Of a DNA stretch of 64,000 bases, positions 6,633-63,921 are shown piece after piece. The position numbers were made by a program, and so were the translations under genes. This DNA is from a virus. Positions within the stretch are counted from its first letter, which is position 1. Every line of letters starts with the position of its first letter. The stretch covers positions 62 to 64,061 of the IMG/VR virus record IMGVR_UViG_3300045836_000083; one strand, given 5' to 3'. The notes beneath the pieces are model-generated. The model saw only the letters and a list, made by a program, of their open reading frames with translations, was not told the DNA's origin and searched no databases.

Positions 6633-6634
6633 TA

Positions 6635-20669: not shown

Positions 20670-20674
20670 ATTCA

Positions 20675-21569: not shown

Positions 21570-21583
21570 TTAACTTAAAATCA

Positions 21584-43376: not shown

Positions 43377-44843
43377 ATGGCAGTAGCTACTATAAATCCT
43401 TGGGCAGCGGGAGCTGTTGTATTTGATCAGCGTCCATTTTTACAGTTCTATGAGCAACAAATGGCTCGTAAACAAGCAAAAGATGATGCTTTAGATAATT
43501 ATTTCCGTGACCTTAATAAAAATGTTACATCTGCCGGCATGCGTTCACAAGATGTATCTAGTTTATTGAAAAAGCAACAGGATGCACAGCAGTATTATTT
43601 TCAAAATAAGGCTCAGATATTAAATCCAAAATTAGATAATGGAGCAGCTTATTCCGAATATCAGGCACGGCATCAAGACATGCTAGGGTTAATTGATCAA
43701 AGCAAAGAAGCTGCTAAATCTATGGATGAGATAGGTAAAATGAAGTTAAACCCTCAGATGTCATACATATTTGAAGACCCAAAATTCATGGATCAATTAC
43801 GATCCCATGAATTACCAATAGGTGATCCAAATAGGAAGGGTATAACTTTAGCTTCATTAACTGTTCCAGATAAACCAGTTGATATTAAAGAATGGGATGC
43901 GTATAATAAATATTTAACAGGAGGAATACCACATGATAAAATACCTGGAGAAACAAAAAGTATAGGTAATTTCAAAACAAGCACCCCTATTTATCAGCAA
44001 TACAGTCCTGAAAATCAAAAAGTAATTGCCGAGCATGCAATGAATGCTTACGAAAGTGATAGAAGATGGCGTACAGAAGCTAACAAAACATTTCAGGATA
44101 TTATGCATGATCCTATGAAATATGATCAGTATAATAAAATGTATAAATCTATATACGGGAAAGATATTGATACTCCTAAAGAAGCATGGGCAGCAAAAGG
44201 GATTATAGATAATAATATGAAGGCGGTGGAATACAAAGAAGGAGAAGACTTTGTGGCTAAGGAAAGATTCAAAGATGCTTTAAGTAGAGCAAGCCAAGAA
44301 GAATTGATAAAATTCAGGAAAAATATTGATCCTAATGATATGGAATTGAATAATCAATGGATTGATCGGTATTTACAAAACAGATTGCAAACCGCAATGT
44401 CAGATGAAGCCAATTATAGAAAAGTTTATACACCACATACAACAAAGTACGGATATGAAATAAGCATGGATCCGGTTTTGGCAAAGTCATTTTCAAGGGG
44501 AGGCAGTGAACCAGATAGACTATATGTAACAGATGATGGACAAAAAATATGGCCTATCTTCTATAAATACGAAAAAGACCCTAAAACAAAACAAACCATT
44601 CTTGTTAAAAATGATAAAGGCGATCCAGTGATAGATGAAGATATTAGTAAACCTTTAGAAATGGATCAAGCTAAATTAGCAATGGGATATAGAGGAGAAA
44701 CAAAAAAACAGTTAGGCAAGACTATGAGTTCCAAAACTAAATCGACACAACCTAAATATCCTTTGCCGGCAGGTAAACCTGCAACAGTAAAACAAAACGG
44801 ATATACATATCATTGGAATAGCGAAATAGGATCGTATGAGTAG
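43377..44843 (+). CDS. Internal virion/ejection protein
   Basis: 488-aa helical protein between ejection-type genes. Confidence 0.55.
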   Translation: MAVATINPWAAGAVVFDQRPFLQFYEQQMARKQAKDDALDNYFRDLNKNVTSAGMRSQDVSSLLKKQQDAQQYYFQNKAQILNPKLDNGAAYSEYQARHQDMLGLIDQSKEAAKSMDEIGKMKLNPQMSYIFEDPKFMDQLRSHELPIGDPNRKGITLASLTVPDKPVDIKEWDAYNKYLTGGIPHDKIPGETKSIGNFKTSTPIYQQYSPENQKVIAEHAMNAYESDRRWRTEANKTFQDIMHDPMKYDQYNKMYKSIYGKDIDTPKEAWAAKGIIDNNMKAVEYKEGEDFVAKERFKDALSRASQEELIKFRKNIDPNDMELNNQWIDRYLQNRLQTAMSDEANYRKVYTPHTTKYGYEISMDPVLAKSFSRGGSEPDRLYVTDDGQKIWPIFYKYEKDPKTKQTILVKNDKGDPVIDEDISKPLEMDQAKLAMGYRGETKKQLGKTMSSKTKSTQPKYPLPAGKPATVKQNGYTYHWNSEIGSYE

Positions 44844-47800
44844 TAAAACATTTCCATCTAGTGGCACAAAGCCAAAATTTAACCCAGATGCAGATTATGA
44901 AGCTGTAGCAGATGCTCCTACGCCGAAAAGTAATAAACCCGCTTTTAATCCAAATGCTCATTTTGAACCAGTTCATGAAGAAAGAACAGAGCCGGTTGCA
45001 CAACCGGCTTTTCATGTTGAATTATCAACCCCTACATTTAAATCAGCACCTGCACAAACAGGGCCTAATACCTTTCAATATAATGCACCCGCAGAAGCAG
45101 GCGACATTATTAAACTAGGAGGTAAAGCTAGAGTAGCACAAGAAAATCTACATAAAGAATTATCTACCAATAAACAAGCATTAGGCAGAGTTATAGTTAA
45201 TGATAGGATAAAGCAACAAGAAAAAAATAGACAAGCGGGCATAGTCGGCCCACAATTAACTGATCCATTATTTATAACTGATGACGATTTAAATAAGGTA
45301 AATACCGAAGCTACAACTAATAGAGATAGAGCTAACCAAGTACTTAGTGCTGCCATGCAAATAAATCCTGAAAAAGCTCAGGAAATACAAAAGAATGCTT
45401 ACATGGTGGATGCCTTTAATAATGCTGCTCAGGATGTGAACGGAAATGAAAGGGTTAATAAAATAGAAGAAAACGCAAAGGCTATTAGCAAAGGAGAATT
45501 GAATTATGACCATCACAACCAAATATTAAGTAAGCCGGAAGGATTCTTTGGAAGTTTAGTTTCTGCAAGAAATGAATTGAATAGATTATCTGATGCCTAC
45601 GATTATACCAAAAAAATGGAAGATGGAGGAAATGAAGCAGGTATAATAATGGAATTGAATAATAGAATAAAACGTGATCCAGATGAACCTGTTAAAATGC
45701 CAACAGGGTTATTGGGACATTTAGGCGCTAATATTGGAGGAATGCCCATTAAGGGATTAGCCGCCGGTACTGTAGCAGGTATTGGTACCTCACTGTTAGG
45801 TAATCCAGAAGCATCCGAAGCTGCGTTTAATATGGCAAGTGCAGGGGTAAATGCTAATGATATGTACAAAATAGGATATCAAAATGCATTAGAGCAAAAC
45901 TATGCCCTATTAAAACGGGATCATCCAGATATGCCAGATTATACCGCTTTTAAACAAGCTCAGGATTTAGCAGGTAAACAAGCGGTGGTTGATGCTGCAT
46001 CGGCAGCAGCAATGCAATATTTAGGAGGCAAAGCCGGTTTTGGGGCAAGTAAACAATTGGCAAAGGGAATATCGAGTGGCTTATCACAAGTAAAAGATGA
46101 ATTGGGTAAAAAAGCATTTGAATCATTAGGGGTAGGTGCTATAGGGGCTGGCGGCCAAACTATAAAAAATCTGATGGCTCAAAATGCAGGATTGAATGTA
46201 CCCACATCCGAAGGCGCAATGGATCAATTTACTACAGGATTATTAATGACAGGTGCAATGTCAATGTTAGGATTAGGTAAAGATATTTTGAAACCATTCA
46301 CAAAAGCCAAATTAGCAAGTGGTATAGCTAAATTACCTGATAATGTAGTTGAACAAGGATTAAATAAAGTAGAGCAAGCAGGTCATTTAACACCAGAACA
46401 GTTACAGAATGTAAAAGATATAATTAGCGAACAAAAAGCATTAGAAAATTCAATACCAGAAACGCTGCCGGAAAGCGATAGACAAAAAATAGGTGACAAG
46501 ATAAAGGAGCGTTCACAACTAAAACAGCAATTAGAACAAGTAGATGAAGCGTATCATCCTGAATTAAAAGATAAAATAAAAAAACTAAATGAAGATATAT
46601 TAAGCATATCGAAAGGTTCAGAACGAGGTGAATTGCAACAGTTAGTTCATGGCGAAATTAACAAAGGGAATGTGCAAGGATATTTAACCGATATCCTACG
46701 AAATGCCAACGAAAAGGAATTAGAGCAATATATGAAGGAAATTTCCGAGCAAGCACATGATCCAGCATCCGAAGAAAATACAATTAAAACCTTCGGAGAA
46801 AAAATAGTTAATAAGGCTAAAGAATTATATCCGAAAAAAGAATCAGCCGTTTCAGTAATACAACCTGGGGAAATAAAACAACCTGAAACTATTACAATTG
46901 CACCACGCGAAAGGCCATCAGATATAAAATCTACTGAAAATGTATCAGTAATAATGCCTAATGAGGCAGGAGCCGGTAAGGTAGTTCCCGACAATATTGG
47001 TCATGTGGAAGTTAGCGAACATGGGGAAGATACCAAAACGGAAGCTGGTCAAGAAAATGGTACTCAACCTTCCAAACTTTCCGAAGATGGAATTAAGGAA
47101 GCTAAAGAACTGGGCAATTATTTAGCAGAAAATAATAAAACAAAAATAATTACCAGTGAAGTTCAGCGGGCGCAAGAAACGGCCCATACTGCTGCTGCGG
47201 AAGTCAAAAATGCAACTGGTAAAGAAATACCAGTAGAAACTAACCCTTTGTTAAATACATGGAATATTGGTGAATATGACGGTAAGCCAGAAGGATCATT
47301 CAATGAAAAAGAATGGATAGATAAACCCAATGAAGCCCCAAAAGGCGGGGAAAGTTTTAATGACTTTAAAGGTCGTATGGAGCAAGCATATCAATATGTA
47401 AAATCATTACCAGAAGATAATCACGTCGTTTCTCATTCAAAAGTAATGAGAGCATTAGAAGCCTTAAAACAAACAGATGGTAAATGGACAGACGAAACAA
47501 CAAAGGAATTTTTAAACAATAAAGAATTACCCAATGCCGTTCCAATCCAAAGCACAAATGGCCTGGATGTTCGCCAACAAACCGGCAATGGCGAAACGAT
47601 GGGCGAAGGAAACACCCAACCCGAAATCATTACCGGAACACAAGGAGGAAGCACCGAAGAAAAAAGTAATGATCAAGGTGAGGAAAACAAAATAGAAAAT
47701 CTTACCATTGATGATGCATACGGATTACCATTTATTGATGAACCGGGAGATAAAAGAACAGGGGTTAAAAATAAAATTTCTGACCAAATAAGATTTGAGA

Positions 47801-50421
47801 GAAAACTACCGGAAGTGCCAATTATAAAAATGGGCTCGGATGTAGAAAAATTACAATTAGGGAAGGAGTTAGTAGATAGTGGTAAAATAAATCCATTAGA
47901 TATTGTAAATAGAGTATTGAATGCGCCAGAAGGGGAACATGGAGTACAACCGAATGAAGTATTAGCATTACAATATTATATGCATCAATTAAATAAACAT
48001 GAGACTAATTTAAGGGAACAAAAAGCTAGGGCGGAAACTCCCATAGAAGAAGCTGAAATAAATGGGCAATTGCAACAATTGTCTGATGAAATAGACGCTG
48101 CTACTAGAGCAAATAAAATAAGTGGGAATGCATGGCATTACGTGGGAGATTTTAGACAAATAGAGGTAGATACTGGTTATAATCCTCACAGAGACGTAGA
48201 TTTAATTAGAGACGCGTATGGAGGAGAAATTCCTTCGGAAGTAAAAGCTCGGTTGGATAAAGTATTGAAAGAAAGAGATGACGCATTAAATAAATTAGCT
48301 AAACTTCAAATAGAACAGACTAAGCAAGCCGCGGATGAAACTATAAAAAAGGAAAGTCCGCCAAAGAATCCTAAAAAATCAGCTACTGACTTTAAGAATG
48401 AACGTACAGAAATAAAAAAATCCATTTCAGATAAATTAAAGAAAGGAAGAACAGGTGAAAGTGGGTTGACTGCCGTTCCATTACCATTTGCAAAAGAACT
48501 TATTTCGATAACGCCTGAAATATTCCAGTTAATAAAAAGCTATGCAGAAGAAGGGGTGCAGAAAACAGAGGAAATAATTAACCGTTTACACGAAGTATTA
48601 AAAGATGAATTGGATGGTATTCAAAAATCAGATATTGTTAACTTATTGGCTGGTAAGTATAAGGCACAAGGTGAAGAAGTTGACCCGATAGCACAACGAA
48701 TAAGAGATTATAGAACGGAAGCTAATATTTGGACTAAAATTGCTGCCGCGCTTAAAATGGAGGAAGATACGCCTAAGAAAAAAGAGGAAAAGAATAAAAA
48801 ATTACAGGATTTACGAGATCGGTTAAATGACATACGGAAGCGCAATAAGGAAGCAGTTAAAGAAATACAATCCATTCTGACACCGGAAATGGCTAAAAAA
48901 GAATTAACGGATGCCGAAAAGGAACTAAATAGGTTAGAAAAGTTAAGAAAGTCAACAGAAACCAAATTTGCTAATAAAAAATATCTACAACCAGAAACTA
49001 AAAAAAGTACAGCTCTTAATACTGCTATAGTAAAAGAAAAACAACGTATAGCGAATGCCCAATATAATATTAGAGTAGAAAAAAGAAAGGCATTTGAATC
49101 TCAAAAGAACTTTTACCAAAAAGCATTAATGTGGACAGGCAGAGCTATAAGACTTTCTATATTGTCAGGGTATAATGTATTAGGTAAATTGGCTGCTGCT
49201 GCTACTATAGGTGGTGCAGGAAAGCGTATTCCAGAACAAGCAATCGGATTTATTTATGGTCAAGCATTCAGAGGAATAGCCGAGAAAGCGCCAATTGAAG
49301 GATTTACAAATGCAAAGGCAGAAGCTAAATTTTATAAAGAGTTCTTTAATCCAAAAACCTTTGCAAAAAATGCATGGCAAATATTAAAAACTGGAGAATC
49401 ACCACTAAGCAAACAATTTTCAAGTGGACAATATGAACATATTCCCGGCTTATATTTGCCTACTGATTTGCACCAGATTATTAAAGACCCATTGAAACGT
49501 GCTACTTATGAAGCATCATTGAAAAATGCTATGGTGTGGGCTGAAAGACAAGGGTTAGATATTAACGATGACTTGGTAATGCAGTCATTGCAAACAGCGG
49601 CTTACAAACGGGCCCAGTATGAAATATTCCAAGAATCAAACGTTTTGTCGCGCAAATTTGGTGAATGGAAAAGCAATATGGAGAAAAAGGGTAATTGGGG
49701 AGCGACAGGTAAATTTTTGGCTGATTTCATGGTGCCGGTAAGTACAGTGCCTACTAATATTGCCCGGCGTGTTGTAACTACCTCACCATTAGGACTAATA
49801 CGCGGGGGAGTTAAAGTTGTTGAAGCCTACAGAAAAGGAATAGAAAATCTCACCCCAGAAGAGGCCGATTCAGTAATGAAGCAGCTAAAACAGGGTACAT
49901 TGGGTACGGCTTTATGGTTAATAGGTTGGTATGGTGCTTCTTATTTTGGTGGTTTATATAGTAAATTCAACCCAAATAAAAGCCGTGATCAGGGCGAATT
50001 AAAATCGGATGAAATGTCGGTAGGAGGGAAAATGATTCCAAAGCCAATACAACACGCGTTACCATTAGAAGTGATTCAATTTGCGGCAACAGCCCGACAC
50101 GTTTATGATCATTATAGTGATAAAGGTGCATCCACAGCGGAAACAATTGAGAAAGCAGGCTTAGCAAGCATAGGGGGATTAACTGAACAAATTCCAATCC
50201 TTGAATCAGCAGTGCACGCTATTGGCGCAACTACCGATCCGTACGAAGCTAAAAAACTAGAAGATGACGCAAAACGTAGGTTTGAACCACAAATTTTGAA
50301 AGAAACAGGAATAATAGGAAAAGAATCTGGTGGTAGCGGAGGTGGTGCCGGCGCTACCGGAACAGTAAGCAAACCAACTAGAGAACATAGACCTACAAGA
50401 ACACATAAAACTCATAGATAA
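44836..50421 (+). CDS. Giant ejection/cargo protein (1861 aa) with an internal histidine-phosphatase-fold domain
   Basis: Gly-rich hydrophobic segments and coiled-coils. At about 47000-47480: EHGE...LSEDG...SEVQRAQETA...GES...VSH. Confidence 0.75.
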   Translation: MSSKTFPSSGTKPKFNPDADYEAVADAPTPKSNKPAFNPNAHFEPVHEERTEPVAQPAFHVELSTPTFKSAPAQTGPNTFQYNAPAEAGDIIKLGGKARVAQENLHKELSTNKQALGRVIVNDRIKQQEKNRQAGIVGPQLTDPLFITDDDLNKVNTEATTNRDRANQVLSAAMQINPEKAQEIQKNAYMVDAFNNAAQDVNGNERVNKIEENAKAISKGELNYDHHNQILSKPEGFFGSLVSARNELNRLSDAYDYTKKMEDGGNEAGIIMELNNRIKRDPDEPVKMPTGLLGHLGANIGGMPIKGLAAGTVAGIGTSLLGNPEASEAAFNMASAGVNANDMYKIGYQNALEQNYALLKRDHPDMPDYTAFKQAQDLAGKQAVVDAASAAAMQYLGGKAGFGASKQLAKGISSGLSQVKDELGKKAFESLGVGAIGAGGQTIKNLMAQNAGLNVPTSEGAMDQFTTGLLMTGAMSMLGLGKDILKPFTKAKLASGIAKLPDNVVEQGLNKVEQAGHLTPEQLQNVKDIISEQKALENSIPETLPESDRQKIGDKIKERSQLKQQLEQVDEAYHPELKDKIKKLNEDILSISKGSERGELQQLVHGEINKGNVQGYLTDILRNANEKELEQYMKEISEQAHDPASEENTIKTFGEKIVNKAKELYPKKESAVSVIQPGEIKQPETITIAPRERPSDIKSTENVSVIMPNEAGAGKVVPDNIGHVEVSEHGEDTKTEAGQENGTQPSKLSEDGIKEAKELGNYLAENNKTKIITSEVQRAQETAHTAAAEVKNATGKEIPVETNPLLNTWNIGEYDGKPEGSFNEKEWIDKPNEAPKGGESFNDFKGRMEQAYQYVKSLPEDNHVVSHSKVMRALEALKQTDGKWTDETTKEFLNNKELPNAVPIQSTNGLDVRQQTGNGETMGEGNTQPEIITGTQGGSTEEKSNDQGEENKIENLTIDDAYGLPFIDEPGDKRTGVKNKISDQIRFERKLPEVPIIKMGSDVEKLQLGKELVDSGKINPLDIVNRVLNAPEGEHGVQPNEVLALQYYMHQLNKHETNLREQKARAETPIEEAEINGQLQQLSDEIDAATRANKISGNAWHYVGDFRQIEVDTGYNPHRDVDLIRDAYGGEIPSEVKARLDKVLKERDDALNKLAKLQIEQTKQAADETIKKESPPKNPKKSATDFKNERTEIKKSISDKLKKGRTGESGLTAVPLPFAKELISITPEIFQLIKSYAEEGVQKTEEIINRLHEVLKDELDGIQKSDIVNLLAGKYKAQGEEVDPIAQRIRDYRTEANIWTKIAAALKMEEDTPKKKEEKNKKLQDLRDRLNDIRKRNKEAVKEIQSILTPEMAKKELTDAEKELNRLEKLRKSTETKFANKKYLQPETKKSTALNTAIVKEKQRIANAQYNIRVEKRKAFESQKNFYQKALMWTGRAIRLSILSGYNVLGKLAAAATIGGAGKRIPEQAIGFIYGQAFRGIAEKAPIEGFTNAKAEAKFYKEFFNPKTFAKNAWQILKTGESPLSKQFSSGQYEHIPGLYLPTDLHQIIKDPLKRATYEASLKNAMVWAERQGLDINDDLVMQSLQTAAYKRAQYEIFQESNVLSRKFGEWKSNMEKKGNWGATGKFLADFMVPVSTVPTNIARRVVTTSPLGLIRGGVKVVEAYRKGIENLTPEEADSVMKQLKQGTLGTALWLIGWYGASYFGGLYSKFNPNKSRDQGELKSDEMSVGGKMIPKPIQHALPLEVIQFAATARHVYDHYSDKGASTAETIEKAGLASIGGLTEQIPILESAVHAIGATTDPYEAKKLEDDAKRRFEPQILKETGIIGKESGGSGGGAGATGTVSKPTREHRPTRTHKTHR

Positions 50422-50983: not shown

Positions 50984-52065
50984 ATGGCATTCAATGGAGC
51001 CTTTACAATCACTAGCGTTATTACGCCGGGGTCATTTATTTTAAATGATACCACTACTGGTTCAGATTCTAATCTGACTGATAGGAAAATTTCTTTATAT
51101 CAAGCTGATGGAACTTTATTAGGTGGAGTACCAATTGATTTCCCTTACACTATGGGCAATTCAATTACTTTAAATGTATTGAATATTGATTATTGCCTTC
51201 TTATTGCAGTTCAATGGATAAGTTCATCACCATTACCGCCTCCTTCATCTTACTCAGCATCAGGACTATATAATTTCCTCGGTAACTCTTATTACTTTCT
51301 AAACAATTTAATAGGGGCCATTCAATCCAATCCTAATATTTTAAATGATGTAGGGTTTGATACCAATCTGAGTAAGTTACAAACAGATATAGATTGTAGT
51401 AGTCAAGCATCTTCTACTGGACAACAGGCAAGTGCGCAAGCAGCCTTATCAAGAATACAATCATTGATTGTTAATCAAAACTATTTTTTCTAATGTCAGT
51501 AGACGTTGCCTCATATATTCAAATAGCAAAGATTTGCCAATACTTAGCCGCAGATAAAGAATCAACTCAAAATTTATTATTTGGTGGTTATATACGGCCA
51601 AATCTTAGTAGGCTATTATATATTGTAAGAAATGGGGTTCAATGGTTGTATACTGTTAATCCCGCAGACCCAACTCTTGATGGGAAGGCCATTTATATGT
51701 ATTCTTTATGTCAGCCATTTGTCGGGCAAGCGTTGCAAATAATAGGTAGTGGTGGTAGTGGTACAATAATAAATCCAGCAACGGGTGTAATTTCAACTAT
51801 TCTTTCTAAGAATATTGAATTTAAGGTAGGCGACCCAGGGTCGCCCATGAATAATGGAGATACATCTTTAACACTAAATTATTCCTTTATCCTAAATTCA
51901 AGTATAATAATATCAGTAGATGGAGTTGACATGCCTATTGGGGTGACAGATAGAATTTCATTTACTCCTTTTTATAGTTCATTAAGCAGTAGCATATCAT
52001 TTAACAATCCAGTTTCTACAGGTCAGTTATATAACATCAAATTCTTACAGTATATAAGTGTATAA
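50984..52065 (+). CDS. Two putative tail/fibre-hub proteins (50984..51493, 51493..52065)
   Basis: Beta-rich, S/T-rich proteins directly before the fibre. Confidence 0.55.
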
Positions 52066-55000
52066 ATGAAACGTTTATTAACCATATTGTTTTTAATAAT
52101 AAGTATCGTTTGTAATGCACAATTACCATTTAATCCGGTTGTAACTCAAACCTCTACAGGTAATTTTAAATGGGGATGGCCCCGAGCAGATTCAGGATTT
52201 ATAAATGCTGTAAGAGATACATTTAATGCCAGGTATTCGGGCTCTCAAATAATTAGAATACAAAACGGCGATACCTCTTTATGGTTTGGAGCAGGTGGGC
52301 ATTTATGGTTCAAAAATTTGCAGGGGAAAGATACCAATTCATTAAGTACAAGAATAAACTTTAAATTAAATACTATAGATACCACTAATAAATGGATTGG
52401 GTTGGGTCGGAGAATACAGGATACGATGTATAGAATAAATGATTCTACAATAGGCTACACAATTAACCAGGTATTACATACCATCCAGATTTTGGGAAGA
52501 TCGCAAGGGGGAGGGGGAGGTTCTGGTACTGTTACCAGCGTGAATATGTCTGTTCCTGCTGCATTAACAGTGAGTGGCGGCCCAATTACTGGAGCAGGTA
52601 CATTTAATTTATCGGGAGCCGGCAACTCAGGGCAATATATAAAAGGCAATGGAACATTAGGAACTACTGATACTTCAATGATTACCAATTTCTATTTGAA
52701 ATCAAGAGGGTTATTATCTGGTAATTCGCCTTTATCATACAATAACATAACTGGCATTTTTAGTATTCAAAATGCTAATACTACAGGTCAAAAAGGTGCG
52801 GCTACGTTTGTTAACGCATCCTTTTCGGATAATGGCAGCGGCTTAATTGATCTGGCTGATGTAGTTACAGGTGGCGTTTGTTCTAATTGCAATGTTACAT
52901 TCGATTCAAAAGGAAGGGCAACTACCTTCACAGATGGGACGGGAGCAAGTGTAAACGCTAGACGTTCAGTAACCAAAGCTACCCTTGATTCTTTACAGCT
53001 TGTTAATGACACTACTTTAAATGTAGCTACAGGGAGAAAATATGATTACCAATTAGATACTACAGGGCGGCGCGCCTATTATGAAGATAAATATGTTATA
53101 GGTAAAAATTATGGTGAAATAAGAGGTTTGCGACTTCCTGATACTTCTTATGTTTTTAGAGCAAATTCCTCTCAAATTGTAGGAGATTATGTATATGACC
53201 CAACGGACGTTACTACCACAGATGATACTGTCGTTACAATTGTTTCAGGGACTTATAGATACAAGAGATATATCCCAGATGGGGTGTATGACCCGCATTG
53301 GTGGGGTGCCAAGGCCAATGGAACATACGATGATACATGGGCAGTTCAACAAGCTATAAACGCAGCAAATAAGTACACGGGCAATAATGGTACTGTTATA
53401 CGATTAACAGGTAATTATAAATTTGACCCATCAAACTTTGTATATAATACAGGCAGGGGAATGGTATTTGAAATAACAGGTAATGTACAGTTATTGAACA
53501 CTTGGCGTATAACAAGAGGGGTGAGTATAATTGGTAAGGGTGGGGCAACAGCGGAAGCATCATTTGCATGGTCGAACATAGCATCGATTCAATATACCGT
53601 GGTAAATACAGGAGCTCCCAAAGCTGCTGTTGAGTTGACATATGGCGGCAATACTTTGAGAAACCTAACCATTGGTAGTTATGGAGGGATAGGAGTTAAA
53701 TTAAATGGAACATTTTTTATACCAGCAGCATTAGCATTGTTGGATAATGTTAGTGCTAGTGTAGGCTCGTATACTGGCAAGCAAACAGGGTTGCTGGTAT
53801 CGGACTGGTTTTGGTTTAAATTGGATAACTGTTCGTTTAGCGTGGATGGCACATCTGCGGCAGGCAGTTCGTCTATAAAGCTGGAAGGTAAAACATATTT
53901 CCCCGACATCAACTTGTGCTATCTGGGCGAATTTAATAATTGCACTGCCCAGGGTAGACCAATTAGAATACAAGCCGGTGACACAGCAGACGCAAGTCTA
54001 AATGTAGGCATTGTAAATATAACTTTTAGAAACTTAACTATAGAAAACATTGCTCCTGATACTGCTGCTATCATGTTAAACAGTACCCGTATTCCCATAG
54101 ATAATATAGTATTTGAGCGTCCAGTAATGGTAGATACTTATAATATGGGATTCTTTATTTATAATTATGGTAATAATACTAGTGGGGTTAAATTACATGA
54201 CGGTGATTTGTTAAGTGGACAATTAAAGAAAATATTCGGAGGTGCTGCTATAGTTAATAAGTATTTCACAAGCACAGCCAAACCAATTAATAATTTTGTT
54301 TTTAACCCAAATTCAAGGCAATTGTACGATGATTTTGGGATTAATGGTTTTACAGATAATATTAATATGAATAGGGGATGGAAACCACCATTAGAACTAC
54401 AGTTGTATGATGGAGGCCAAATTGCACGCAATGCTGCAAGACTAAAAGATTCAGTAATAACTTCGGCATCAGTTGTAACCGAACCCTTCACTGGGTACAA
54501 TGGTGATACGGTAGCAATCAAAGTAACCCCCGACGGGACTAATAGCAACCCTACTATCCAAATAAAACAGTATGAGCAAGTTTGGCATACTGGCGATCAA
54601 ATATATTTCGGCGCATGGGTTAAAAGTGATTACATGGATAGCATCTTTTCAACGGCTTTAAAGGCTCAAATAGATGGTGGATATCTTTGGCAGAATACAT
54701 CTTCATCCACACTTGTTTCGGACATAACTTATATTTCACAACCTAATAATGGATGGAGGTTTTTAATATGTTCAGGGTTAATTGATGCGTCGGCATCAGA
54801 CCATTCCTCACATAAAATGTATTTATATATTAATAGCAACGATACGAATAGAACACACCCATACTATGTTTCTCACGCTTTTGCTTACAAAATAGACAGC
54901 GCAACCGCTATAAACCAAAATGAATTTCTTTCGTGGGTTAAGATGAATGCCGGTGGTCTTTACGCTGTTCCTTCAAAGAGTTATGGGATAAGAGATGATT

Positions 55001-56295
55001 TAGCATTTTATATTGGAGATAGTACACGATTTTTAAAAGGCGTATTGCAAAGAATGGATGGTACGGGTACATGGCAGTCAGTGGGAGGCGGTGGTGGTGG
55101 TATTACTTTGGCTCCTATAGGCTCTAGTCCAAACGCAAATGGGGCATCTTTTAGTTCGGGTACCCTAACATTACAGCCAGCTAATGCATCCTTTGGTGGC
55201 GTAGTCACAACTGCCTCTCAAACATTTGCTGGAACAAAAACCTTTAATAATGAAATAATTGTTAGTGGTAATACACCTAATAATCCTACAGGTCTATTCG
55301 GGAACATGAATATTCAGTCATTTCAAAATCTGAATGGATTTGTTGCCAATAATCTTTATTACAACAACGGAGGTAGCGGATATACGTACCTACAAAATGG
55401 GCAAGGCGCTCAGTTCCATTTTTCCTCAGGCGACATATTATTCGAAACAGCCGGCACAGGCACAGCAGGAGGCGCTGCATCGCCTTCTACTATTATGCAA
55501 GTTACTAATCCGGGAGAAGTTTGGACAAGCGGATCTATGTCAGTTGGATCATTGGCAAGCCCTGTTTGGAAGTTGGATGTGAATGGGCCTATACGCTCAA
55601 AAAGTGCAACTGCTGGATTAATATTAAACAATAGAGGCACTAATGTTGAATCAATAATGCTTTATAGCCCTAGCGGTGGAGAGCTAGATGTTTATGATTG
55701 GACAACTAGTGCTACGCGTTTTACTTTCCTAAGCACAGGGCAACTTCAACTCAATAACTATGGCAGTGGCGCATTCCCAGGCACTCCAACCCACACCTTA
55801 CAGTCTACATCGGATGGGCATATTATAGAAGGAGCCTTATTCGTTGATAGTGCTATCTGGAAAAATGATGGCACCATGACTGCCAATCATACGCTGAGTG
55901 GTAATAGTAAAATATTGAATATAGGGGCAAGTGGAAGTAAATTAACTAACCTCTATATGTATACAAGCTCGACCATTAATATGTTTGGTGGAGTGGTATA
56001 CGGCACTGACGCATCCAATACGGATGCAAATTATACAGTACCCAATAATGTAATTATTGCTGAACTTTCGCCATCATTATCTACAAACAGAACACTAACT
56101 CTGCCTACTGCTACATTAAACGGTACTATGGTAACATTGGTAATGAGATATTCAACAAGTACTAATGTTTACAACCTATCAGCAGCGGTAACCGATAATG
56201 CTACAGGTACAACATTTACTCAATTGGATTGGGGTCATACGTATGATTTTTATTATGATCAAGGTTTGAGTTGGAGATTAATAAGAAAATATTAA
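52066..56295 (+). CDS. Tail fibre/spike with a pectate-lyase-like beta-helix and an N-terminal signal peptide
   Basis: GGGGGSGTVTSV junction, YDPHWWGAKANGTYDDTWAVQQAIN (beta-helix cap), and GVVTTASQTFAGTKTF fibre repeat. The N-terminus is MKRLLTILFLIISIVCNA|Q. Confidence 0.8.
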   Translation: MKRLLTILFLIISIVCNAQLPFNPVVTQTSTGNFKWGWPRADSGFINAVRDTFNARYSGSQIIRIQNGDTSLWFGAGGHLWFKNLQGKDTNSLSTRINFKLNTIDTTNKWIGLGRRIQDTMYRINDSTIGYTINQVLHTIQILGRSQGGGGGSGTVTSVNMSVPAALTVSGGPITGAGTFNLSGAGNSGQYIKGNGTLGTTDTSMITNFYLKSRGLLSGNSPLSYNNITGIFSIQNANTTGQKGAATFVNASFSDNGSGLIDLADVVTGGVCSNCNVTFDSKGRATTFTDGTGASVNARRSVTKATLDSLQLVNDTTLNVATGRKYDYQLDTTGRRAYYEDKYVIGKNYGEIRGLRLPDTSYVFRANSSQIVGDYVYDPTDVTTTDDTVVTIVSGTYRYKRYIPDGVYDPHWWGAKANGTYDDTWAVQQAINAANKYTGNNGTVIRLTGNYKFDPSNFVYNTGRGMVFEITGNVQLLNTWRITRGVSIIGKGGATAEASFAWSNIASIQYTVVNTGAPKAAVELTYGGNTLRNLTIGSYGGIGVKLNGTFFIPAALALLDNVSASVGSYTGKQTGLLVSDWFWFKLDNCSFSVDGTSAAGSSSIKLEGKTYFPDINLCYLGEFNNCTAQGRPIRIQAGDTADASLNVGIVNITFRNLTIENIAPDTAAIMLNSTRIPIDNIVFERPVMVDTYNMGFFIYNYGNNTSGVKLHDGDLLSGQLKKIFGGAAIVNKYFTSTAKPINNFVFNPNSRQLYDDFGINGFTDNINMNRGWKPPLELQLYDGGQIARNAARLKDSVITSASVVTEPFTGYNGDTVAIKVTPDGTNSNPTIQIKQYEQVWHTGDQIYFGAWVKSDYMDSIFSTALKAQIDGGYLWQNTSSSTLVSDITYISQPNNGWRFLICSGLIDASASDHSSHKMYLYINSNDTNRTHPYYVSHAFAYKIDSATAINQNEFLSWVKMNAGGLYAVPSKSYGIRDDLAFYIGDSTRFLKGVLQRMDGTGTWQSVGGGGGGITLAPIGSSPNANGASFSSGTLTLQPANASFGGVVTTASQTFAGTKTFNNEIIVSGNTPNNPTGLFGNMNIQSFQNLNGFVANNLYYNNGGSGYTYLQNGQGAQFHFSSGDILFETAGTGTAGGAASPSTIMQVTNPGEVWTSGSMSVGSLASPVWKLDVNGPIRSKSATAGLILNNRGTNVESIMLYSPSGGELDVYDWTTSATRFTFLSTGQLQLNNYGSGAFPGTPTHTLQSTSDGHIIEGALFVDSAIWKNDGTMTANHTLSGNSKILNIGASGSKLTNLYMYTSSTINMFGGVVYGTDASNTDANYTVPNNVIIAELSPSLSTNRTLTLPTATLNGTMVTLVMRYSTSTNVYNLSAAVTDNATGTTFTQLDWGHTYDFYYDQGLSWRLIRKY

Positions 56296-57569: not shown

Positions 57570-58337
57570 GTGAAATTACCTTACTGGTTAAAAATTCTAG
57601 CAATCATACTGATTATATTTCTAGTGTATGCATTAATACGCGGCTGTAAAAATGCAAAGCATAAGTATGATAATTATGATAACATTTCAGCCCAACTGAC
57701 AAAGGTATTGCAAGAAAAAGAGGATGATAGTTTAGCTGCTCTGATAAAGGAGCAATTGCAACGAGACACTATTGCATTCATAAATGGTCAGTTAGCCTTA
57801 TTTCAGAACAAAAACCTAGTAACTACTGATTCCTTAAGGGCAGCAAATAATCGTATAACAACCCTCCTACATAAACCCATTTCTATTCCTACCTTATCCG
57901 ACAGCGGAAGAACAACAGTTAATAATGAGTTTATTGCCGATTGCTCAGACTGCTTCAAAGAACTATCCAACGGGCAACAATTAGTCACACGCTATAAATC
58001 AGAAAAGGATAGCATTCAGTCATTATTGACTTATAAAATATCAATAATGGATGATGAAATAAACGACCTTAATAAAACAAATAATTTTCTCCATCAAAAG
58101 GTAAATGATGCAGTTAGCCTAGCACAACGCAGTCAAAAACAATCACAAATAAGAAGAACATTATATTTTAGTTTGGCAGCATTAAGTATCAAGGGCCCCC
58201 TTCCTAGTGGAGTGGGAGCCGGTTTTATTTATATGGATAAACATATGCGTTTATTTGGAGCTAACTACTTTATAAGTAATTATGGGGCCATTTATCAGGC
58301 TCAATTGTCTATGCCATTATCTTTAAAAGGGCGCTAA
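57570..58337 (+). CDS. Spanin-like protein (N-terminal TM, coiled-coil, C-terminal beta-strands)
   Basis: GTG start, TM ILAIILIIFLVYALI, long coiled-coil and amphipathic beta C-terminus; located before the endolysin. Confidence 0.6.
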   Translation: MKLPYWLKILAIILIIFLVYALIRGCKNAKHKYDNYDNISAQLTKVLQEKEDDSLAALIKEQLQRDTIAFINGQLALFQNKNLVTTDSLRAANNRITTLLHKPISIPTLSDSGRTTVNNEFIADCSDCFKELSNGQQLVTRYKSEKDSIQSLLTYKISIMDDEINDLNKTNNFLHQKVNDAVSLAQRSQKQSQIRRTLYFSLAALSIKGPLPSGVGAGFIYMDKHMRLFGANYFISNYGAIYQAQLSMPLSLKGR

Positions 58338-59084: not shown

Positions 59085-59110
59085 AACCGTGGCATTTGTC
59101 ACGGTTTTTT
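59085..59110 (+). terminator. Late-operon terminator
   Basis: AACCGTGGC-attt-GTCACGGTT followed by TTTT. Confidence 0.75.
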
Positions 59111-59115
59111 GCATT

Positions 59116-59143
59116 AAAAAAGCCCAGTTAAGACTAACCAGGC
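59116..59143 (-). terminator. Terminator for the leftward early operon
   Basis: Minus strand reads GCCTGGTTA-gtct-TAACTGGGC-TTTTTT (stem includes G-U pairs). Confidence 0.7.
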
Positions 59144-59727: not shown

Positions 59728-60603
59728 TTATTCATTAAATATGGAACGAATTATTTCACCTCCATAGGCATTTTGAGTTAATTTAACAAAGGTTTCTACC
59801 GTCATTGAACCATCAAGAGTAATACCATTTTCTTTTAACCAATGTTTTTTACCAGATTCACAAGAACCTGTGAGAATTGTATGCCATTTGTAAAAAAGAT
59901 CATTGGAATATTGATTTCCCGGTTTGAATTGGCTTTTAAATTCTAAAATGGCCTTCTCCTTATCAAGTGATGAGTAATACTTTATATCTACGGCTTCATT
60001 AGCTTCCTTAATAGTTTCACCATGCGCAAATAAATTGCCTTTTTTAACTACATACATCGCAGAGGTTGAAAAATCGGCCACATTAATAATTGAGACTAGT
60101 GCAACATTGCCTTTTATACTATCAAAAGTGCATGGTATTTTGTCGATATAGTAAACCTTTTTGACACCAATAGAAGAAAATATAATGCCGTAGCTGTCGC
60201 CGTCGCCGTAGCCATCGCCGTAGCCGTAGCTGTTGCCGTAGCCGTTGCCGTAGCCGTTGCCGTTGCCGTCGCCGTTGCCGTCGCCGTTGCCGTCGCTGTT
60301 GCCGTAGCCGTTGCCGTTGCCGTCGCCGTTGCCGTCGCCGTCGCCGTTGCCGTCGCCGTAGCCATCACCGTAGCCGTCGCCGTTGCCGTCGCCGTCGCCG
60401 TAGCCGTAGCCGTAGCCATCACCGTAGCCGTCGCCGTTGCCGTCGCCGTCGCCGTCGCCGTTGCCGTAGCTGTTGCCGTAGCCGTTGCCGTAGCCGTAGC
60501 CGTAGCCGTAGCCGTTGCCGTCGCCGTTGCCGTCGCCGTCGCCGTTGCCGTAGCCATCGCCGTAGCCGTCTATTTTCAAGAATTGTTTAATTATCTTTTC
60601 CAT
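59728..60603 (-). CDS. Gly-x repeat protein with a C-terminal globular domain
   Basis: About 130 residues of G-(D/N/Y) repeats; the C-domain contains FAHGETIKEA and WHTILTGSCESG. Confidence 0.85.
   Translation of the reverse strand: MEKIIKQFLKIDGYGDGYGNGDGDGNGDGNGYGYGYGYGNGYGNSYGNGDGDGDGNGDGYGDGYGYGYGDGDGNGDGYGDGYGDGNGDGDGNGDGNGNGYGNSDGNGDGNGDGNGNGYGNGYGNSYGYGDGYGDGDSYGIIFSSIGVKKVYYIDKIPCTFDSIKGNVALVSIINVADFSTSAMYVVKKGNLFAHGETIKEANEAVDIKYYSSLDKEKAILEFKSQFKPGNQYSNDLFYKWHTILTGSCESGKKHWLKENGITLDGSMTVETFVKLTQNAYGGEIIRSIFNE
60187..60570 (-). repeat. Hexamer tandem array GGC(G/A/T)AC, roughly 60 units
   Basis: The plus strand reads GCCGTN repeated throughout. Confidence 0.95.
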
Positions 60604-60923: not shown

Positions 60924-63921
60924 TTATTCAGGTGAATAATAAGAGCAAACTATATCATCCGTTTGCTTATCTACAACCAATACTAGATTGCTTTCCCGGC
61001 ATCTTACCCAATATAGCTTATGGTCGTATTTATGTGCTTTTAAATCGGACATTTTAGGGCATTCGAGGTAATGTTTTCGAGTGCAGGAACCAAAGAGCAA
61101 AGCCAATGTTATAATCAAGACAAGCACAAAAAAGAATCCGTGTATGTTTTGCCGTCTGGAATAGTGTGGGCCTTCGTAATAGGCTTTAGGGGTTTGCTTT
61201 TTCATTTTCTCTTTCTTTTGCGTTTGGTTAATTTATATTCTCGCATTAAGGAGTGAATAAAGTCGTTTTGGGTTACTAAGTTTTCGTGTGGCATTCGTTT
61301 ATTAGTACCGGCCCAATTGTGTTCCTGTCTATCCCAGCGCCTTATTTCAGAGATAAACGTTTGCCACTCGTTCATATTTCGTTTCATAAATTAATTTTAC
61401 ACCATTTGATAATTAACTCGGAATCCTTTTTATTGAGATAAAGCACATAATGTAAATACCTGCCTTCTTTATTGCTTCTCCATTTGGCTTCGACCAGGTT
61501 AATTAATTGACCATAAGAGTGGAGAAGTTTGTAAAAAATAGTTTCATTGTCACATTGAATAATAGCAGTATCATTTACATAGCTAATTGTAGTTTCATCT
61601 GCTATTTTTACGGGAGTAGGTTGGGCATTTGCTTTTAACCAGAACGCGCCCACCAACGAAAGAACCAAAAAGATAATGATTGCTTTTTTCATGTTTGTTA
61701 ATAAAAGGTTATAAATTGTTTTAATTGCTGAATTACAAGTGATTTATAAGCTATTATTAAGCAGATAATACCGGTTAACATAACTATCGCTGATATTGCC
61801 GCCCACCAACTAAAGTAAATGGGCAAGGTCTATGGAACATTGCGTGTAATAAGCCATATACAACCAACATACGCCCATATAATAAAACTGGCACTGGAAA
61901 GCGAGATTAATAACCAAGATATACGTTTCATCGGTAATAAGTTTTAAAAGGTTAAATAAAAAGACTTTGAATTAATAAGAACCAATTGCCCACCTACTAC
62001 AGCCCACACATTAAAGGTGGAGTGTGAATAACGACTACTAATAGTACCATCTAGGTTGAATGTTATTCTGTACTGTAGTTGGTCTTTTAGGGTTGATATG
62101 ATAGTTGCGTGGTTCATAGCCCTTTAGTTATAGTATTTAATAGCTTCATAAATAGTTTCAAATGCTTCAAAGTCAGGGATATAAAGGGCCATACCACCGG
62201 AATAGCCCAGTAAAACGGTTTGATCAATTAATTCAGGCATGATTAAGAGGTTTATTAACGTGAAAACGAAATACCTAATGCTAATAATGCTTTCTCTCCG
62301 CGAAGTATTGCACAAGATAAATGAGTACCACTAGTATAATCGCATTCAACCAATTCCTTTAAAGCTAAAAGAGCTTCTTTGTATTGTCCTTTTTGCCATT
62401 CAGCGCCATCTTTAAAAGCTACTTCTACTATTCGTTCACAGTTTACACCAGAGTTTCGAAGTGCATAATCAGCGGCATATTGAAAAATATCTGACATATA
62501 ATATATTAATAAAACTTTGAGATAATCTCGTTAGTCAAATCACTATCGTATTCTGGCTCATAAGGGTCACTAATTGCGTAAAGAGTAAGACGGCACATTA
62601 ACGCATTTAATTTCGGGTCATTTAATTCCGCAGCACGCGAAGCCACTTCCTCCAACATGCCCGCAAATATCTGTAAGGGCCTTTTCAAAATGCCCGTACC
62701 GGGATTGTTAAGGATTTCTTGTAATAATCCTGGAGTATGGCAACGCCATTCAAGATTTCTACCAGGTACAAGAATTTCTTTATTTTTTATAGTTGGCATA
62801 AAACAAGTTTAAGATTCTAAATATAATTCACCATCCACAGGGCTAAACTTATCAGAAGTAGCCGTTACGGTACTCTCTTTTAGTTGAACTGTTAAAATAG
62901 CTACTATTGCAGGGTTACTAGTACCATTAGGCCCCAATTCGATAGCCCTTAAAGTACCAATACGGCCATCGTCATATTGTAGTTTATCTCCGACTCTTAT
63001 CCGTATGCCGACAGTGCGTTGTTTAGCAATATATTCGCGTAACATAATATTGGTATTAAATGATTGAAAAATAGCCAGTTATTACCGATACTGGCAAACG
63101 GCCTGATGATCGCCTTGGTCGTGCCTGGAAAAAACTAGTTCAAAACCCAAATAATATTTGAAAAAAGTTAAGTTTTTTTGCTATCAATAAGCCCGTATAA
63201 ACATTAGCCGGAGTTCCAGAAAGGGAAGGATAGTTAGTTATTGCATATCCTTCGGGCAGACTTTCAATGGCATACAGCGTGTTTTCACAAAAACTTTTAT
63301 AGCTTTCTGCTTCAATGATAAGAACAACATATTTAGGTTTAGTTTTCATTAAGTCTAGTTTATGTTATTAGTTAGTTTCCGGCAATTTCATTCCATACTA
63401 CTTCCAATTCAGCTATTTCTAAGGCAGATAATTCATATTCCTCATCGGCAGGCGCATTGTAAATGCACACACATTCGTTGTCTTGTCTTTCTTTAAAGGC
63501 TGCAAAACTGGCCTCATCAACGGAATCAAAATAACCAATCAATCGCTCAGACAATACATTGTCATTTAAATCTAAAATCGCACAAGTAGCCTTAATTTGT
63601 TGATTATCAGAAATGAACTTTGACATAAATAGTTAGTATTAAAGGGGTGAATAATTAGTTGATATAATGATATCTAGCCGCATGCTTGAGCAGGCATACT
63701 TGTTCCGCTAATGTTTTATAGCATTTACCAAATTCATCTTTGCGTGTCCAACCAACGCGATTGGCGGCCATATCCCATTTGGCTAAGGGTAAGGTATTAA
63801 GGTGGTCGTCGCCGTTGTTAAGAGCTTGTTTAACTTGCTCTTTTGTGAACGGTATATAATTTACGACTTCTGGTTTAGCCTTGAATAACGTTTCATATTT
63901 ATCAAAGTGTGAGTTAGACAT
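60924..63921 (-). CDS. Leftward small early genes (60924, 61202, 61384 with signal peptide, 61944..62117, 62124, 62255, 62506, 62809, 63140, 63372, 63655)
   Basis: From the ORF track, plus the hand-translated 57-aa ORF 61944..62117 (MNHATIIST...FYLTF). 61384..61692 starts MKKAIIIFLVLSLVGAFWLKANA|Q. Confidence 0.7.

Follow-up and report, generated by a model that had tools for sequence, protein, structure and literature searches.

A predicted secretion signal and sugar-attachment motifs on the only tail fibre of an uncultured phage suggest periplasmic rather than cytoplasmic maturation

In the textbook account, assembly of tailed phages is entirely cytoplasmic. The tailspikes of the Klebsiella phages (K2-2 TSP and Kp7 gp52), of phage CBA120 (TSP2 and TSP4) and of Acinetobacter phage Fri1 (gp49) to our knowledge have no signal peptide and complete both folding and attachment inside the cytoplasm. 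Among late phage proteins, use of the Sec system is known to us only for those of lysis and exclusion: SAR and Sec-exported endolysins, spanins and lipoprotein exclusion factors reach the envelope in this way and await lysis there (PMC6116005), but none is a virion component, which is the role proposed here for a tail fibre. An exported bacterial tailspike-like glycanase, WceF of Pantoea stewartii, is also known (PMC7949094; 6tgf). It shares with the present fibre a tailspike fold outside the cytoplasm (predicted in the case of the fibre); however, WceF is chromosomal, is exported in a folded state by the Tat system and lacks fibre and anchor domains, while the fibre family has no twin-arginine motif.

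Sec/signal peptidase I (SPI) substrates of the Bacteroidota follow the Q-rule, with glutaminyl cyclisation in the periplasm (Bochtler et al., 2018, PMC5837995), and five Q-rule genes of unknown function have been described in Porphyromonas gingivalis phages, where they were taken to modify the host envelope (Matrishin et al., 2023, PMC10367356). The O-glycosylation system of the phylum acts on non-cytoplasmic proteins only and with near-complete site occupancy; a review of its motif (PMC12871550) contains no mention of phage. In the uncultured phage described here, from a soil/rhizosphere metagenome, the bearer of the Q-rule leader is a tailspike-type fibre. As in Q-rule substrates, its leader is predicted to be cleavable and to expose a Gln for host cyclisation, and as in O-glycosylation substrates, a predicted signal peptide is combined with the D-[ST]-[hydrophobic] motif. 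The host is presumably a member of the Bacteroidota having the O-glycosylation system.

The fibre gene and its modular product

The window analysed is a stretch of 64,000 nucleotides, in which the fibre gene occupies positions 52066-56295 (+), open for 1409 aa, with the N-terminus MKRLLTILFLIISIVCNA|QLPF. Its start codon adjoins the stop codon of the upstream 190-aa gene (TAAATG), while the next in-frame Met lies only at about residue 120, within conserved sequence; the leader must therefore be translated. The gene is the final one of the structural operon and directly precedes the lysis genes. The fibre gene shares an operon with the gene for a 255-aa protein, and no strong bidirectional terminator is reached before 59085-59143; terminator-like matches within the fibre and lysis genes are weak only. 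A scan of the genes of the virion module revealed the fibre leader as the sole N-terminus resembling a signal peptide, and a search of the window for a second fibre- or spike-like gene found none. Together with the modular architecture and the fold matches described below, the place of the gene supports its being a genuine tailspike-type fibre within a late operon.

Two small leaderless genes of 169 aa and 190 aa (50984..52065, +) precede the fibre gene and are candidates for tail adaptor or assembly factors. Their homologues lie directly upstream of the fibre in loci L008, L009, L010 and L016 and are absent from L011, L014 and L015, where the fibres have other N-domains. The 255-aa product of the lysis module (57570..58337, +) is spanin-like, possessing an N-terminal membrane anchor, a conserved [RK]GC motif and a coiled coil, and has homologues in L008, L009, L011, L015 and L016.

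Behind its leader, the fibre has an N-terminal anchor, then fibre repeats, a beta-helix of the tailspike type and finally a distal fibre that ends in a tip. The N-terminal domain (residues 19-152; 52120..52521, +), which ends in a Gly5 linker, is the candidate virion anchor. It is conserved in 73 homologues regardless of their central domain, is always accompanied by homologues of the 169-aa and 190-aa genes, even in the rearranged locus L016, and co-varies with the phage backbone; its AF2 model is unusable (pLDDT 55). The proximal fibre repeats (residues ~153-335; 52522..53070, +) have the motif GTVTSV...P...V.G.PIT..GT, a conserved CxxC at 272-275 and a mean column identity of 76% (alignment A2). 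This repeat is shared with phage fibres that lack a leader (L006, L007) and with Chryseobacterium proteins that are exported.

The central right-handed beta-helix (residues ~336-1005; 53071..55080, +) is predicted from its model to be a polysaccharide depolymerase module of the tailspike type. The AF2 model has a mean pLDDT of 65 (70-90 over most of model residues ~70-400), and every one of the top 25 matches in a Foldseek search of the PDB was a phage tailspike or depolymerase (E 1e-10 to 1e-6). The best were K2-2 TSP (8iq9/8iq5, E 1e-10), Kp7 gp52 (7xyc), CBA120 TSP2/4 and Fri1 gp49, all with a right-handed beta-helix core, at probability 1.00 and with E-values of 1e-10 to 1e-8 for the best tailspike depolymerases; the TM-scores to tailspikes of 0.3-0.4 are explained by the moderate quality of the central-domain model. 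Like tailspike depolymerases, the fibre has a modular N-terminal anchor and exchangeable enzyme modules: some 300 N-terminal residues are common to the 73 homologues, with centres of the SGNH, SASA, BNR sialidase or pectate-lyase-like type. The central module is 97% identical in a relative with a different phage backbone (P0003), and residues 286-1409 have been transferred at 82% identity to another backbone carrying its own leader. The remaining portion, comprising a Gly6 linker, distal fibre repeats and C-terminal tip (residues ~1006-1409; 55081..56295, +), has 1462 relatives at E<=1e-3. Its ~60-aa repeat (query 2-60) is found in many fibres, while the final ~150 aa, the tip, appear, among the N-termini inspected, to occur mostly in leader-bearing proteins.

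The leader and the O-glycosylation sequons

The leader comprises residues 1-18 (52066..52119, +), with a predicted Sec/SPI cut before Gln19. The basic n-region, apolar core, C-N-A at -3 to -1 and Gln at +1 that a first-pass annotation of this DNA had described are all present. The signal-peptide call itself relies on rule-based statistics on the leaders of the family, whose layout is kept in 68 of 75 relatives; the claim would have been undermined by homologues that lack the leader or start downstream of it, but the seven leaderless ones are truncated gene calls. Across the 68, position -1 is occupied by A (45), S (15), G (4), C (3) or T (1) and position -3 by A (30), V (19), G (5), S (4) or others, while Asp or Glu appears just once in the 1282 leader residues. 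The first eight residues hold a mean of 1.26 K/R, with none at all in a single leader, and the longest apolar run has a median of 13 (IQR 11-14, 75 proteins), which is the length of a signal peptide and below that of a membrane span. Q19 is nearly invariant (>=90%, alignment A1), yet sequence identity among the leaders is just 27% despite the SPI geometry being kept. AF2 gives a helix at 2-15 (pLDDT 86). At least three unrelated N-terminal architectures each bear their own leader of this kind, and in one relative (P0078) the beta-helix comes straight after the leader and the anchor domain is missing. Judged from some 70 diverged homologues, this supports the leader as a selected Sec/SPI signal that follows the Bacteroidota Q-rule.

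Two other export types were considered. Tat export of the WceF type is not supported, as no twin-arginine pattern (RRx##) occurs within the first 30 residues of the 75 proteins, and a lipoprotein processed by signal peptidase II is made unlikely by the lack of any lipobox-like pattern in residues 11-35 across the family; Cys16 of the fibre is not conserved.

The fibre has exactly 15 strict D-[ST]-[AILVMT] sequons, matching the count of about 15 made earlier by eye, as well as three DTS; the listed types (DTT, DTM, DST, DSL, DTV, DTA, DSV, DSI and DSA) were all found. Composition-preserving shuffles give an expectation of 5.6 +/- 2.3 (2.7x, P ~0.002), so that the frequency exceeds shuffled controls. 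The earlier counts of Ser or Thr after the first eight Asp residues, and after 13 of the first 19, proved exact on recounting; the former has P ~2e-6 given that S+T make up 19.6% of residues, and over the whole fibre 25 of 74 Asp are so followed (binomial P = 0.003). Four sequon columns of the N-domain are conserved, namely D89 (20/22), D105 (18/22), D119 (15/22) and D126 (19/22).

The excess, like the leader, is conserved in the homologues. Family-wide the sequon reaches 2.88x its shuffle expectation, compared with 1.0x for the reverse motif and 0.85x for D[ST] followed by any other residue. In the non-homologous variable parts of the family it is still 1.95x (D[ST]+other 0.58x, reverse motif 0.87x, E[ST]x 0.56x), a pattern that reproduces the requirement of the Bacteroidota sequon for Asp and for particular third residues. 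Within four related phage loci, leader- or anchor-bearing proteins have 3.17x (76 vs 24.0, n=9), whereas other proteins of at least 150 aa from the same phages have 1.03x (58 vs 56.1, n=60); three further loci give 2.22x and 0.90x respectively. Among fibres with a common distal domain, the 24 that have a leader show 2.04x and the 109 leaderless ones 0.77x. The 255-aa spanin-like protein does carry the DSL, DTI, DSL and DSI attributed to it (4 vs 0.8 expected, P = 0.008), with observed/expected values of 2/0.5, 2/0.4 and 4/0.7 in its L008, L009 and L011 homologues. The capsid protein had been credited with almost no sequons, and the candidate at 33494-34933 has zero strict ones. The leaderless 1308-aa nozzle protein has a mild excess (10 vs 5.3, P = 0.04), and host chromosomal exported proteins, in a small sample, reach 1.15x, below the ~3x of the fibre family. 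Taken together, these comparisons support selection of the sequon that is confined to proteins with a leader and shows the third-position specificity to be expected.

Leader-bearing proteins of cultured phages

The nearest cultured kin of the phage infect Flavobacteriaceae. Among them, the Cellulophaga podoviruses phi18:3 and phi46:3 (Pachyviridae) are distant relatives by their portal (~21% identity). Like the fibre, phi18:3 gp085-087 and phi46:3 gp079-083 are large, fibre-like, encoded just before the lysis genes and equipped with a basic-hydrophobic leader ending in [AS]|Q. The leaders of phi18:3 gp085-087 are of the same kind, and GenBank describes these three as structural 'based on experimental MS/MS proteomics analysis'. 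The fibre has no detectable sequence similarity to the Cellulophaga structural proteins and, unlike it, their leader-bearing proteins sit apart from the main tail module. In these the sequon is specifically depleted (3 vs 15.7 and 3 vs 9.8; 0.19-0.31x), the mirror image of its enrichment in the fibre. It follows from this depletion, set beside the enrichment in the fibre family, that the motif is selected both ways in leader-bearing virion proteins.

The first-pass annotation had regarded the proposed assembly route as undescribed. No published description of a Sec-leader, sequon-rich tail fibre, nor any paper on the route, was found in the literature, and to that extent the claim holds. However, leader-bearing virion proteins are already present, unremarked, in the GenBank records of cultured Cellulophaga phages, with no printed discussion of those leaders found, and Q-rule genes are on record from Porphyromonas phages (PMC10367356).

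Proposed route of assembly and its alternatives

It is probable, in our view, that the fibre leaves the cytoplasm, loses its leader by a cut before Gln19, receives O-glycans from the host and becomes attached to the tail once lysis begins. The fibre gene is transcribed late, together with the virion and lysis genes, and its precursor would be exported by the host Sec system. Signal peptidase I would cut after Ala18 and Gln19 would be cyclised as in other Bacteroidota SPI substrates, while the host's general periplasmic O-glycosylation system would modify D-[ST]-[AILVMT] sites, probably including the four conserved ones in the neck of the N-domain. The chains would fold and trimerise in the periplasm, and the finished fibre would dock by its backbone-specific N-domain on fibreless particles built in the cytoplasm, which would have to await opening of the inner membrane by the holin, or lysis of the cell. 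The glycans may have been selected for stability, solubility or masking of the most exposed protein of the virion. The comparisons between relatives give good support to export and to selection on the sequon; attachment to the virion and its timing are what we infer. Attachment only after the membrane is breached would seem inefficient. The Cellulophaga precedent supports a virion role for the fibre by analogy only, and MS detection there could reflect a co-purifying exported protein. A secreted-fibre route is also not general, since gp22-26 of the well-studied Bacteroides podovirus crAss001, when examined for leaders, had none.

Soluble depolymerase forms of phages are well known, and the leader and sequons would suit equally well an exported protein that is no part of the virion but a free periplasmic or released tailspike-like depolymerase. 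Such an enzyme would trim or destroy host surface polysaccharide from within, blocking superinfection, freeing progeny from debris or easing release, and the virion would bind cells by another protein, for example the nozzle. P0078, with its leader and beta-helix and no anchor, fits this, as does the fact that all central domains of the family are polysaccharide-acting; bacteria export tailspike-like enzymes too, and Pantoea WceF (6tgf) is among the fold matches (PMC7949094). A free enzyme, however, has no need of ~300 conserved N-terminal residues and fibre repeats that co-vary with the backbone and the two upstream genes, nor of a second, distal fibre and tip beyond the enzyme module. As the window yielded no other fibre- or spike-like gene and the leader-bearing counterparts in phi18:3 are structural by MS/MS, we judge a free depolymerase rather unlikely.

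Two further readings dispense with periplasmic maturation of a virion part. That the N-terminus does not serve export, being an uncleaved structural or membrane-active helix of a fibre assembled in the cytoplasm or else a relic, with the sequon excess a structural preference of the fold, accords with canonical assembly, with the demands that a 1400-aa trimeric beta-helix would place on Sec and with the mild motif excess in the leaderless nozzle. We consider it improbable: the leader conserves SPI features and not sequence (small residues at -3/-1, Gln at +1, near absence of acidic residues, ~13 apolar residues), and unrelated N-terminal architectures have leaders of their own. A fold preference is contradicted by the leaderless fibres with the same distal domain, which have no excess, and by the neutral or depleted reverse-motif and D[ST]+other controls, while the Cellulophaga depletion would have no easy explanation if the proteins never met the glycosylation machinery. 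Display on, or secretion from, the living infected cell (at the outer-membrane surface, by T9SS or in vesicles) had been put forward in the first-pass annotation beside export, glycosylation and joining at lysis. Many large surface proteins are exported by Bacteroidota, and Chryseobacterium has chromosomal genes for leader-bearing proteins that contain the fibre repeat seen here. Against this, no T9SS C-terminal sorting domain (TIGR04183/TIGR04131 type) was matched in NCBIfam, in the whole protein or in 1250-1409, even at E = 1, nor was one matched in Pfam; no lipobox or outer-membrane anchor of any kind was found in the fibre, and its gene stands immediately ahead of the lysis genes in a lytic late operon. 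Display is accordingly very improbable, whereas the first-pass proposal of export, glycosylation and joining at lysis is partly supported, by the leader, sequon and tailspike tests and by the leader-bearing proteins of the phi18:3 particles.

Periplasmic maturation may extend to a set of Bacteroidota tailed phages, although we put this at a little under an even chance. Heads and tails would be built in the cytoplasm, while Sec-secreted pyroglutamate fibres, decorated with O-glycans in the sequon-enriched lineage of the present fibre and glycan-free in the sequon-depleted Cellulophaga phages, would be attached when the holin opens the inner membrane. Host-made glycans on the virion would then be a selected trait, possibly tuned by phage GT9 and methyltransferase genes. 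The opposite sequon biases of the two lineages may offer a cheap genomic marker for viral proteins that see the periplasm, and cultured Cellulophaga and Flavobacterium systems would allow a direct test of fibre export. If the proposed route is true, recombinant Bacteroidota phage depolymerases may need leader removal or a periplasmic route in order to fold, and a secreted, host-glycosylated receptor-binding protein would constitute a new step in morphogenesis and a new vulnerable point. The virions of a major bacterial phylum could then bear host-type glycans, which would have a bearing on adsorption, stability, immune recognition and the prediction of phage-host range.

Genomic setting of the fibre gene

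The source record is 64.5 kb in length, nearly complete (CheckV 92%), has a G+C content of about 35% and derives from soil/rhizosphere metagenomes. Its late region has PHROG matches for a large terminase (26881-28956) and a portal protein of 813 aa (29013-31454), along with a nozzle-like virion protein of 1308 aa (38320-42246) showing a weak match to the crAss muzzle C-terminal. Next come a gene for an 1861-aa protein (44836-50421, + strand), three small genes, the fibre ORF (52066-56295, + strand) and a membrane-protein-rich module which is probably the lysis module. Family searches gave no family name for the lysis genes of the window. The 1861-aa protein possesses an internal His_Phos_1 (histidine-phosphatase) domain (residues 729-874, E 2e-22) and is likely an ejected cargo protein; related phages, too, conserve this giant gene 5′ of their fibre. 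A strong bidirectional terminator first appears at 59085-59143, with only weak terminator-like matches within the fibre and lysis genes. No tRNA genes were found in the window.

By portal similarity (about 21-25% identity), the closest cultured phages are podoviruses of Flavobacteriaceae, namely the Cellulophaga Pachyviridae phi46:3, phi18:3, phi13:2 and phi19:3, Flavobacterium Elemovirus and Maribacter phage Panino. As the closest cultured kin of the portal infect Flavobacteriaceae, the host is most likely a member of the Bacteroidota. In a scan of GTDB genomes, four from Bacteroidota gave matches, all of them partial and to the generic fibre repeat, and no prophage copy of the fibre came up.

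There are also other genes of interest in the window. A DUF5672 and GT9 (heptosyltransferase-like) fusion and two Methyltransf_24 proteins (19251-22249, + strand) adjoin the packaging genes; speculatively, these could alter LPS or an Und-P-linked O-glycan bound for an exported fibre. Small early-region genes at 6363-7245 and 61384-61692 (both - strand) have signal peptides or lipoprotein-like leaders, that of the latter ending in ANA followed by Gln, while the gene at 6635-6910 matches phrog_30702. These are candidate exported host-modifying or exclusion proteins. A 291-aa protein (59728-60603, - strand) has long GYGDGNG-type repeats at its start and a TrAA12-like Pfam match (E 1.7e-11).

Leader and architecture of the fibre

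The first-pass annotation had read the fibre as beginning with a signal peptide, and the translated ORF has the leader that it described, MKRLLTILFLIISIVCNA followed by Gln. The start codon follows the stop of the upstream gene without a gap (TAAATG), and the next Met lies about 100 codons downstream, within conserved sequence. Among the virion-module genes, only the fibre has a signal-like N-terminus. A search of 5.8 billion proteins identified 73 relatives sharing its first ~300 residues, and with two more sharing the central domain these make up a family of 75. Leader retention in homologues had been named as a check, and the same layout was present in 68 of the 75: Met, Lys/Arg, an apolar run (median 13, IQR 11-14), A/V at -3, A/S/G at -1, then Gln. 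The other seven are truncated gene calls, several of which retain the leader end (...AKAQ, ...VKSQ). Pairwise identity of the leaders is only 27%, yet they hold a single acidic residue in 1282; it is therefore a physico-chemical pattern that is conserved in them, not a sequence. Gln19 is conserved at 90% or above in the alignment, and a Gln in this +1 position is what the phylum-specific 'Q-rule' prescribes for signal peptidase I substrates of Bacteroidota (PMC5837995). At least three unrelated N-terminal architectures each have their own Q-rule-type leader, these being represented by the relatives P0001, P0003/P0054/P0058/P0077 and P0078, the last with a beta-helix directly after the leader. 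Neither a twin-arginine motif nor a lipobox was found in the leaders of the family, and cysteine parity, taken as a sign of disulfide-bonded export, gave no signal (37 even, 36 odd). Judged from its predicted leader, the fibre is very probably exported.

The protein is modular in structure, with the leader (residues 1-18), a conserved N-domain ending in a Gly5 linker (19-152), fibre repeats of the GTVTSV...PIT..GT type (about 153-335), a beta-helix (about 336-1005), and a Gly6 linker followed by distal fibre repeats and a tip (about 1006-1409). Searches with the whole fibre against Pfam, PHROGs and NCBIfam gave no family, tblastn with the fibre or its residues 140-300 as query matched none of 50,697 phage records, and phmmer against PDB sequences returned nothing. 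An AF2 model of the fibre centre (pLDDT 65 overall, 70-90 across most of the helix) has as its best structural matches phage tailspike depolymerases, namely K2-2 TSP (E 1e-10), Kp7 gp52, CBA120 TSP2/4 and Fri1 gp49. The AF2 monomer of residues 1-340 reached a pLDDT of 55.

Relatives keeping the N-domain have SGNH esterase, sialate O-acetylesterase, BNR sialidase or pectate-lyase-like centres. The N-domain always co-occurs with homologues of the two small genes directly upstream (169 aa and 190 aa; 50984..52065, + strand), even at a locus (L016) where other gene order is rearranged. The predicted complex of the 190-aa protein with the N-domain scored 0.00, which is evidence neither way. A different phage of 80 kb (L011) has residues 286-1409 at 82% identity (97% over 340-1000); the N-domain and upstream genes there are different ones, and the phage supplies a leader of its own. 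In the lysis module downstream, its genes and those of the window share 97-100% identity, so the two phages presumably have a host in common. Receptor-binding proteins classically show this combination, an anchor specific to the backbone joined to a distal part that is exchanged horizontally. The window yielded no other fibre-like gene, and it is probable that the fibre is a member of the virion.

In the same sister phage, an IS605 OrfB/TnpB (Cas12f-like) gene is inserted between the fibre and lysis genes (L011:14865-16082). On other backbones, a second leader-bearing gene lies near a leader-bearing fibre (L014:6437-8383, 648 aa; L015:13366-14631, 421 aa, with a beta-helix match), and the L014 fibre is directly 3′ of a lysozyme gene. 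The Chryseobacterium gambrini chromosome has three consecutive signal-peptide genes (L004:8281-11878), the last with a GTVTSV fibre repeat, and the same arrangement occurs at L005:1170-4212; the exported proteins of Bacteroidota bacteria therefore include some made up of this fibre module.

Glycosylation sequons in leader-bearing proteins

As counted in the first-pass annotation, the first eight Asp residues of the fibre, and 13 of the first 19, are followed by Ser/Thr. The strict O-glycosylation sequon, D-[ST]-[AILVMT], occurs 15 times, compared with 5.6 +/- 2.3 after shuffling (P about 0.002), and the capsid-protein candidate has zero sequons. Family-wide there are 1110 against 385 expected (2.88x); as such ratios are drawn from related sequences, z-scores would overstate significance, and it is the ratios together with their controls that form the evidence. 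The controls were D[ST] plus another residue (0.85x), the reverse motif (1.00x), N[ST][AILVMT] (1.00x) and E[ST][AILVMT] (0.52x). In the variable parts from residue 400, which come from several unrelated enzyme families, the sequon stood at 1.95x and the same controls at 0.58x, 0.87x, 1.15x and 0.56x respectively. The enrichment thus needs Asp, not Glu, and a hydrophobic residue or Thr at +2, like the experimentally defined Bacteroidota sequon (PMC12871550). The N-domain sequon columns D89, D105, D119 and D126 are kept in 15-20 of 22 sequences.

For the window and three related loci, leader- or anchor-bearing proteins have 3.17x the expected sequons (76 vs 24.0, n=9) and the others 1.03x (58 vs 56.1, n=60), the figures for three further loci being 2.22x and 0.90x. 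Relatives of the distal domain (1010-1409) stand at 2.04x with a leader (n=24) and 0.77x without one (n=109). By these counts, sequon frequency separates the predicted exported proteins from the non-exported within phage genomes. In a small sample of Chryseobacterium chromosomal genes the sequon is at 1.15x in both classes alike, so the phage excess is not simply host background.

A 255-aa protein of the lysis module (57570-58337, + strand), with an N-terminal membrane anchor, a conserved [RK]GC and a coiled coil, carries the DSL, DTI, DSL and DSI previously noted in it (4 vs 0.8 expected, P = 0.008). Conserved counterparts occur in five related phages, the three that were measured being sequon-rich as well (2/0.5, 2/0.4 and 4/0.7). 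Like it, the membrane-anchored lysis protein gp27 of Bacteroides phage crAss001 is sequon-rich (4 vs 0.3), suggesting that O-glycosylation may extend to the periplasmic lysis proteins of phages. The fibres/spikes of crAss001 (gp22-26), which served as a negative control, lack a leader and have 16 sequons against 11.9.

The Cellulophaga phages present a mirror image. The products of phi46:3 gp079-083 (L012:8344-16946) and phi18:3 gp085-087 (L013:5892-11584), both gene sets lying immediately 5′ of lysis genes, all have leaders ending in A or S before Gln, and no homology to the window fibre was found by BLASTP or phmmer. Their leader type is like that of the fibre; however, the strict sequon is depleted in them (phi46:3, 3 vs 15.7, reached in none of 1000 shuffles; phi18:3, 3 vs 9.8, P = 0.007), as if it were avoided. 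In these proteins the reverse, N[ST]x and D[ST] plus other motifs show no bias, with E[ST]x and D[AG]x at about 1.5x. Leaderless phi46:3 proteins have the sequon at 0.88x. Enrichment in the one lineage and depletion in the other therefore point to selection on the sequon in both directions, only in leader-bearing proteins, a bias not easily accounted for if these proteins never encounter the machinery of periplasmic glycosylation. According to its GenBank feature note, from which their MS/MS status is taken, phi18:3 gp085-087 are each a 'structural protein; annotation based on experimental MS/MS proteomics analysis', and this is the only experimental hint that leader-bearing proteins of such a kind end up in particles.

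A possible route of fibre assembly

The course of events that we favour, with some reserve for the chain as a whole, is that the fibre is co-expressed late with the virion and lysis genes and would be exported by Sec, whereupon its leader would be cut before Gln19 and this residue cyclised. Its sequons would then be O-glycosylated, folding and trimerisation would take place in the periplasm, and the N-domain would dock the fibre onto fibreless particles, either after the inner membrane has been breached by the holin or upon lysis.

The main rival, which we consider rather unlikely, is that the protein is exported but acts as a free depolymerase, for which the Tat-exported WceF of Pantoea offers a bacterial analogue. 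That the leader is non-functional is less probable still, given its layout across the family. Display on the infected cell, the second option of the first-pass annotation, lost ground, as the protein has neither a T9SS domain nor a lipobox or Tat motif, and surface display is regarded as highly improbable; export by T9SS, by Tat or as a lipoprotein was discarded on the same grounds.

The phage proteins known to use Sec are endolysins, spanins and exclusion lipoproteins (PMC6116005), and Q-rule genes of Porphyromonas phages, of unknown function, have been read as envelope modifiers (PMC10367356). Phage go unmentioned in a 2025 review on O-glycosylation in Bacteroidota (PMC12871550), and our literature search turned up no account of tailed-phage fibres with signal peptides or host O-glycosylation. 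The fibre would be of the tailspike type with a route of export and glycosylation and, if this assembly route were proven, it would represent a new category of phage morphogenesis.
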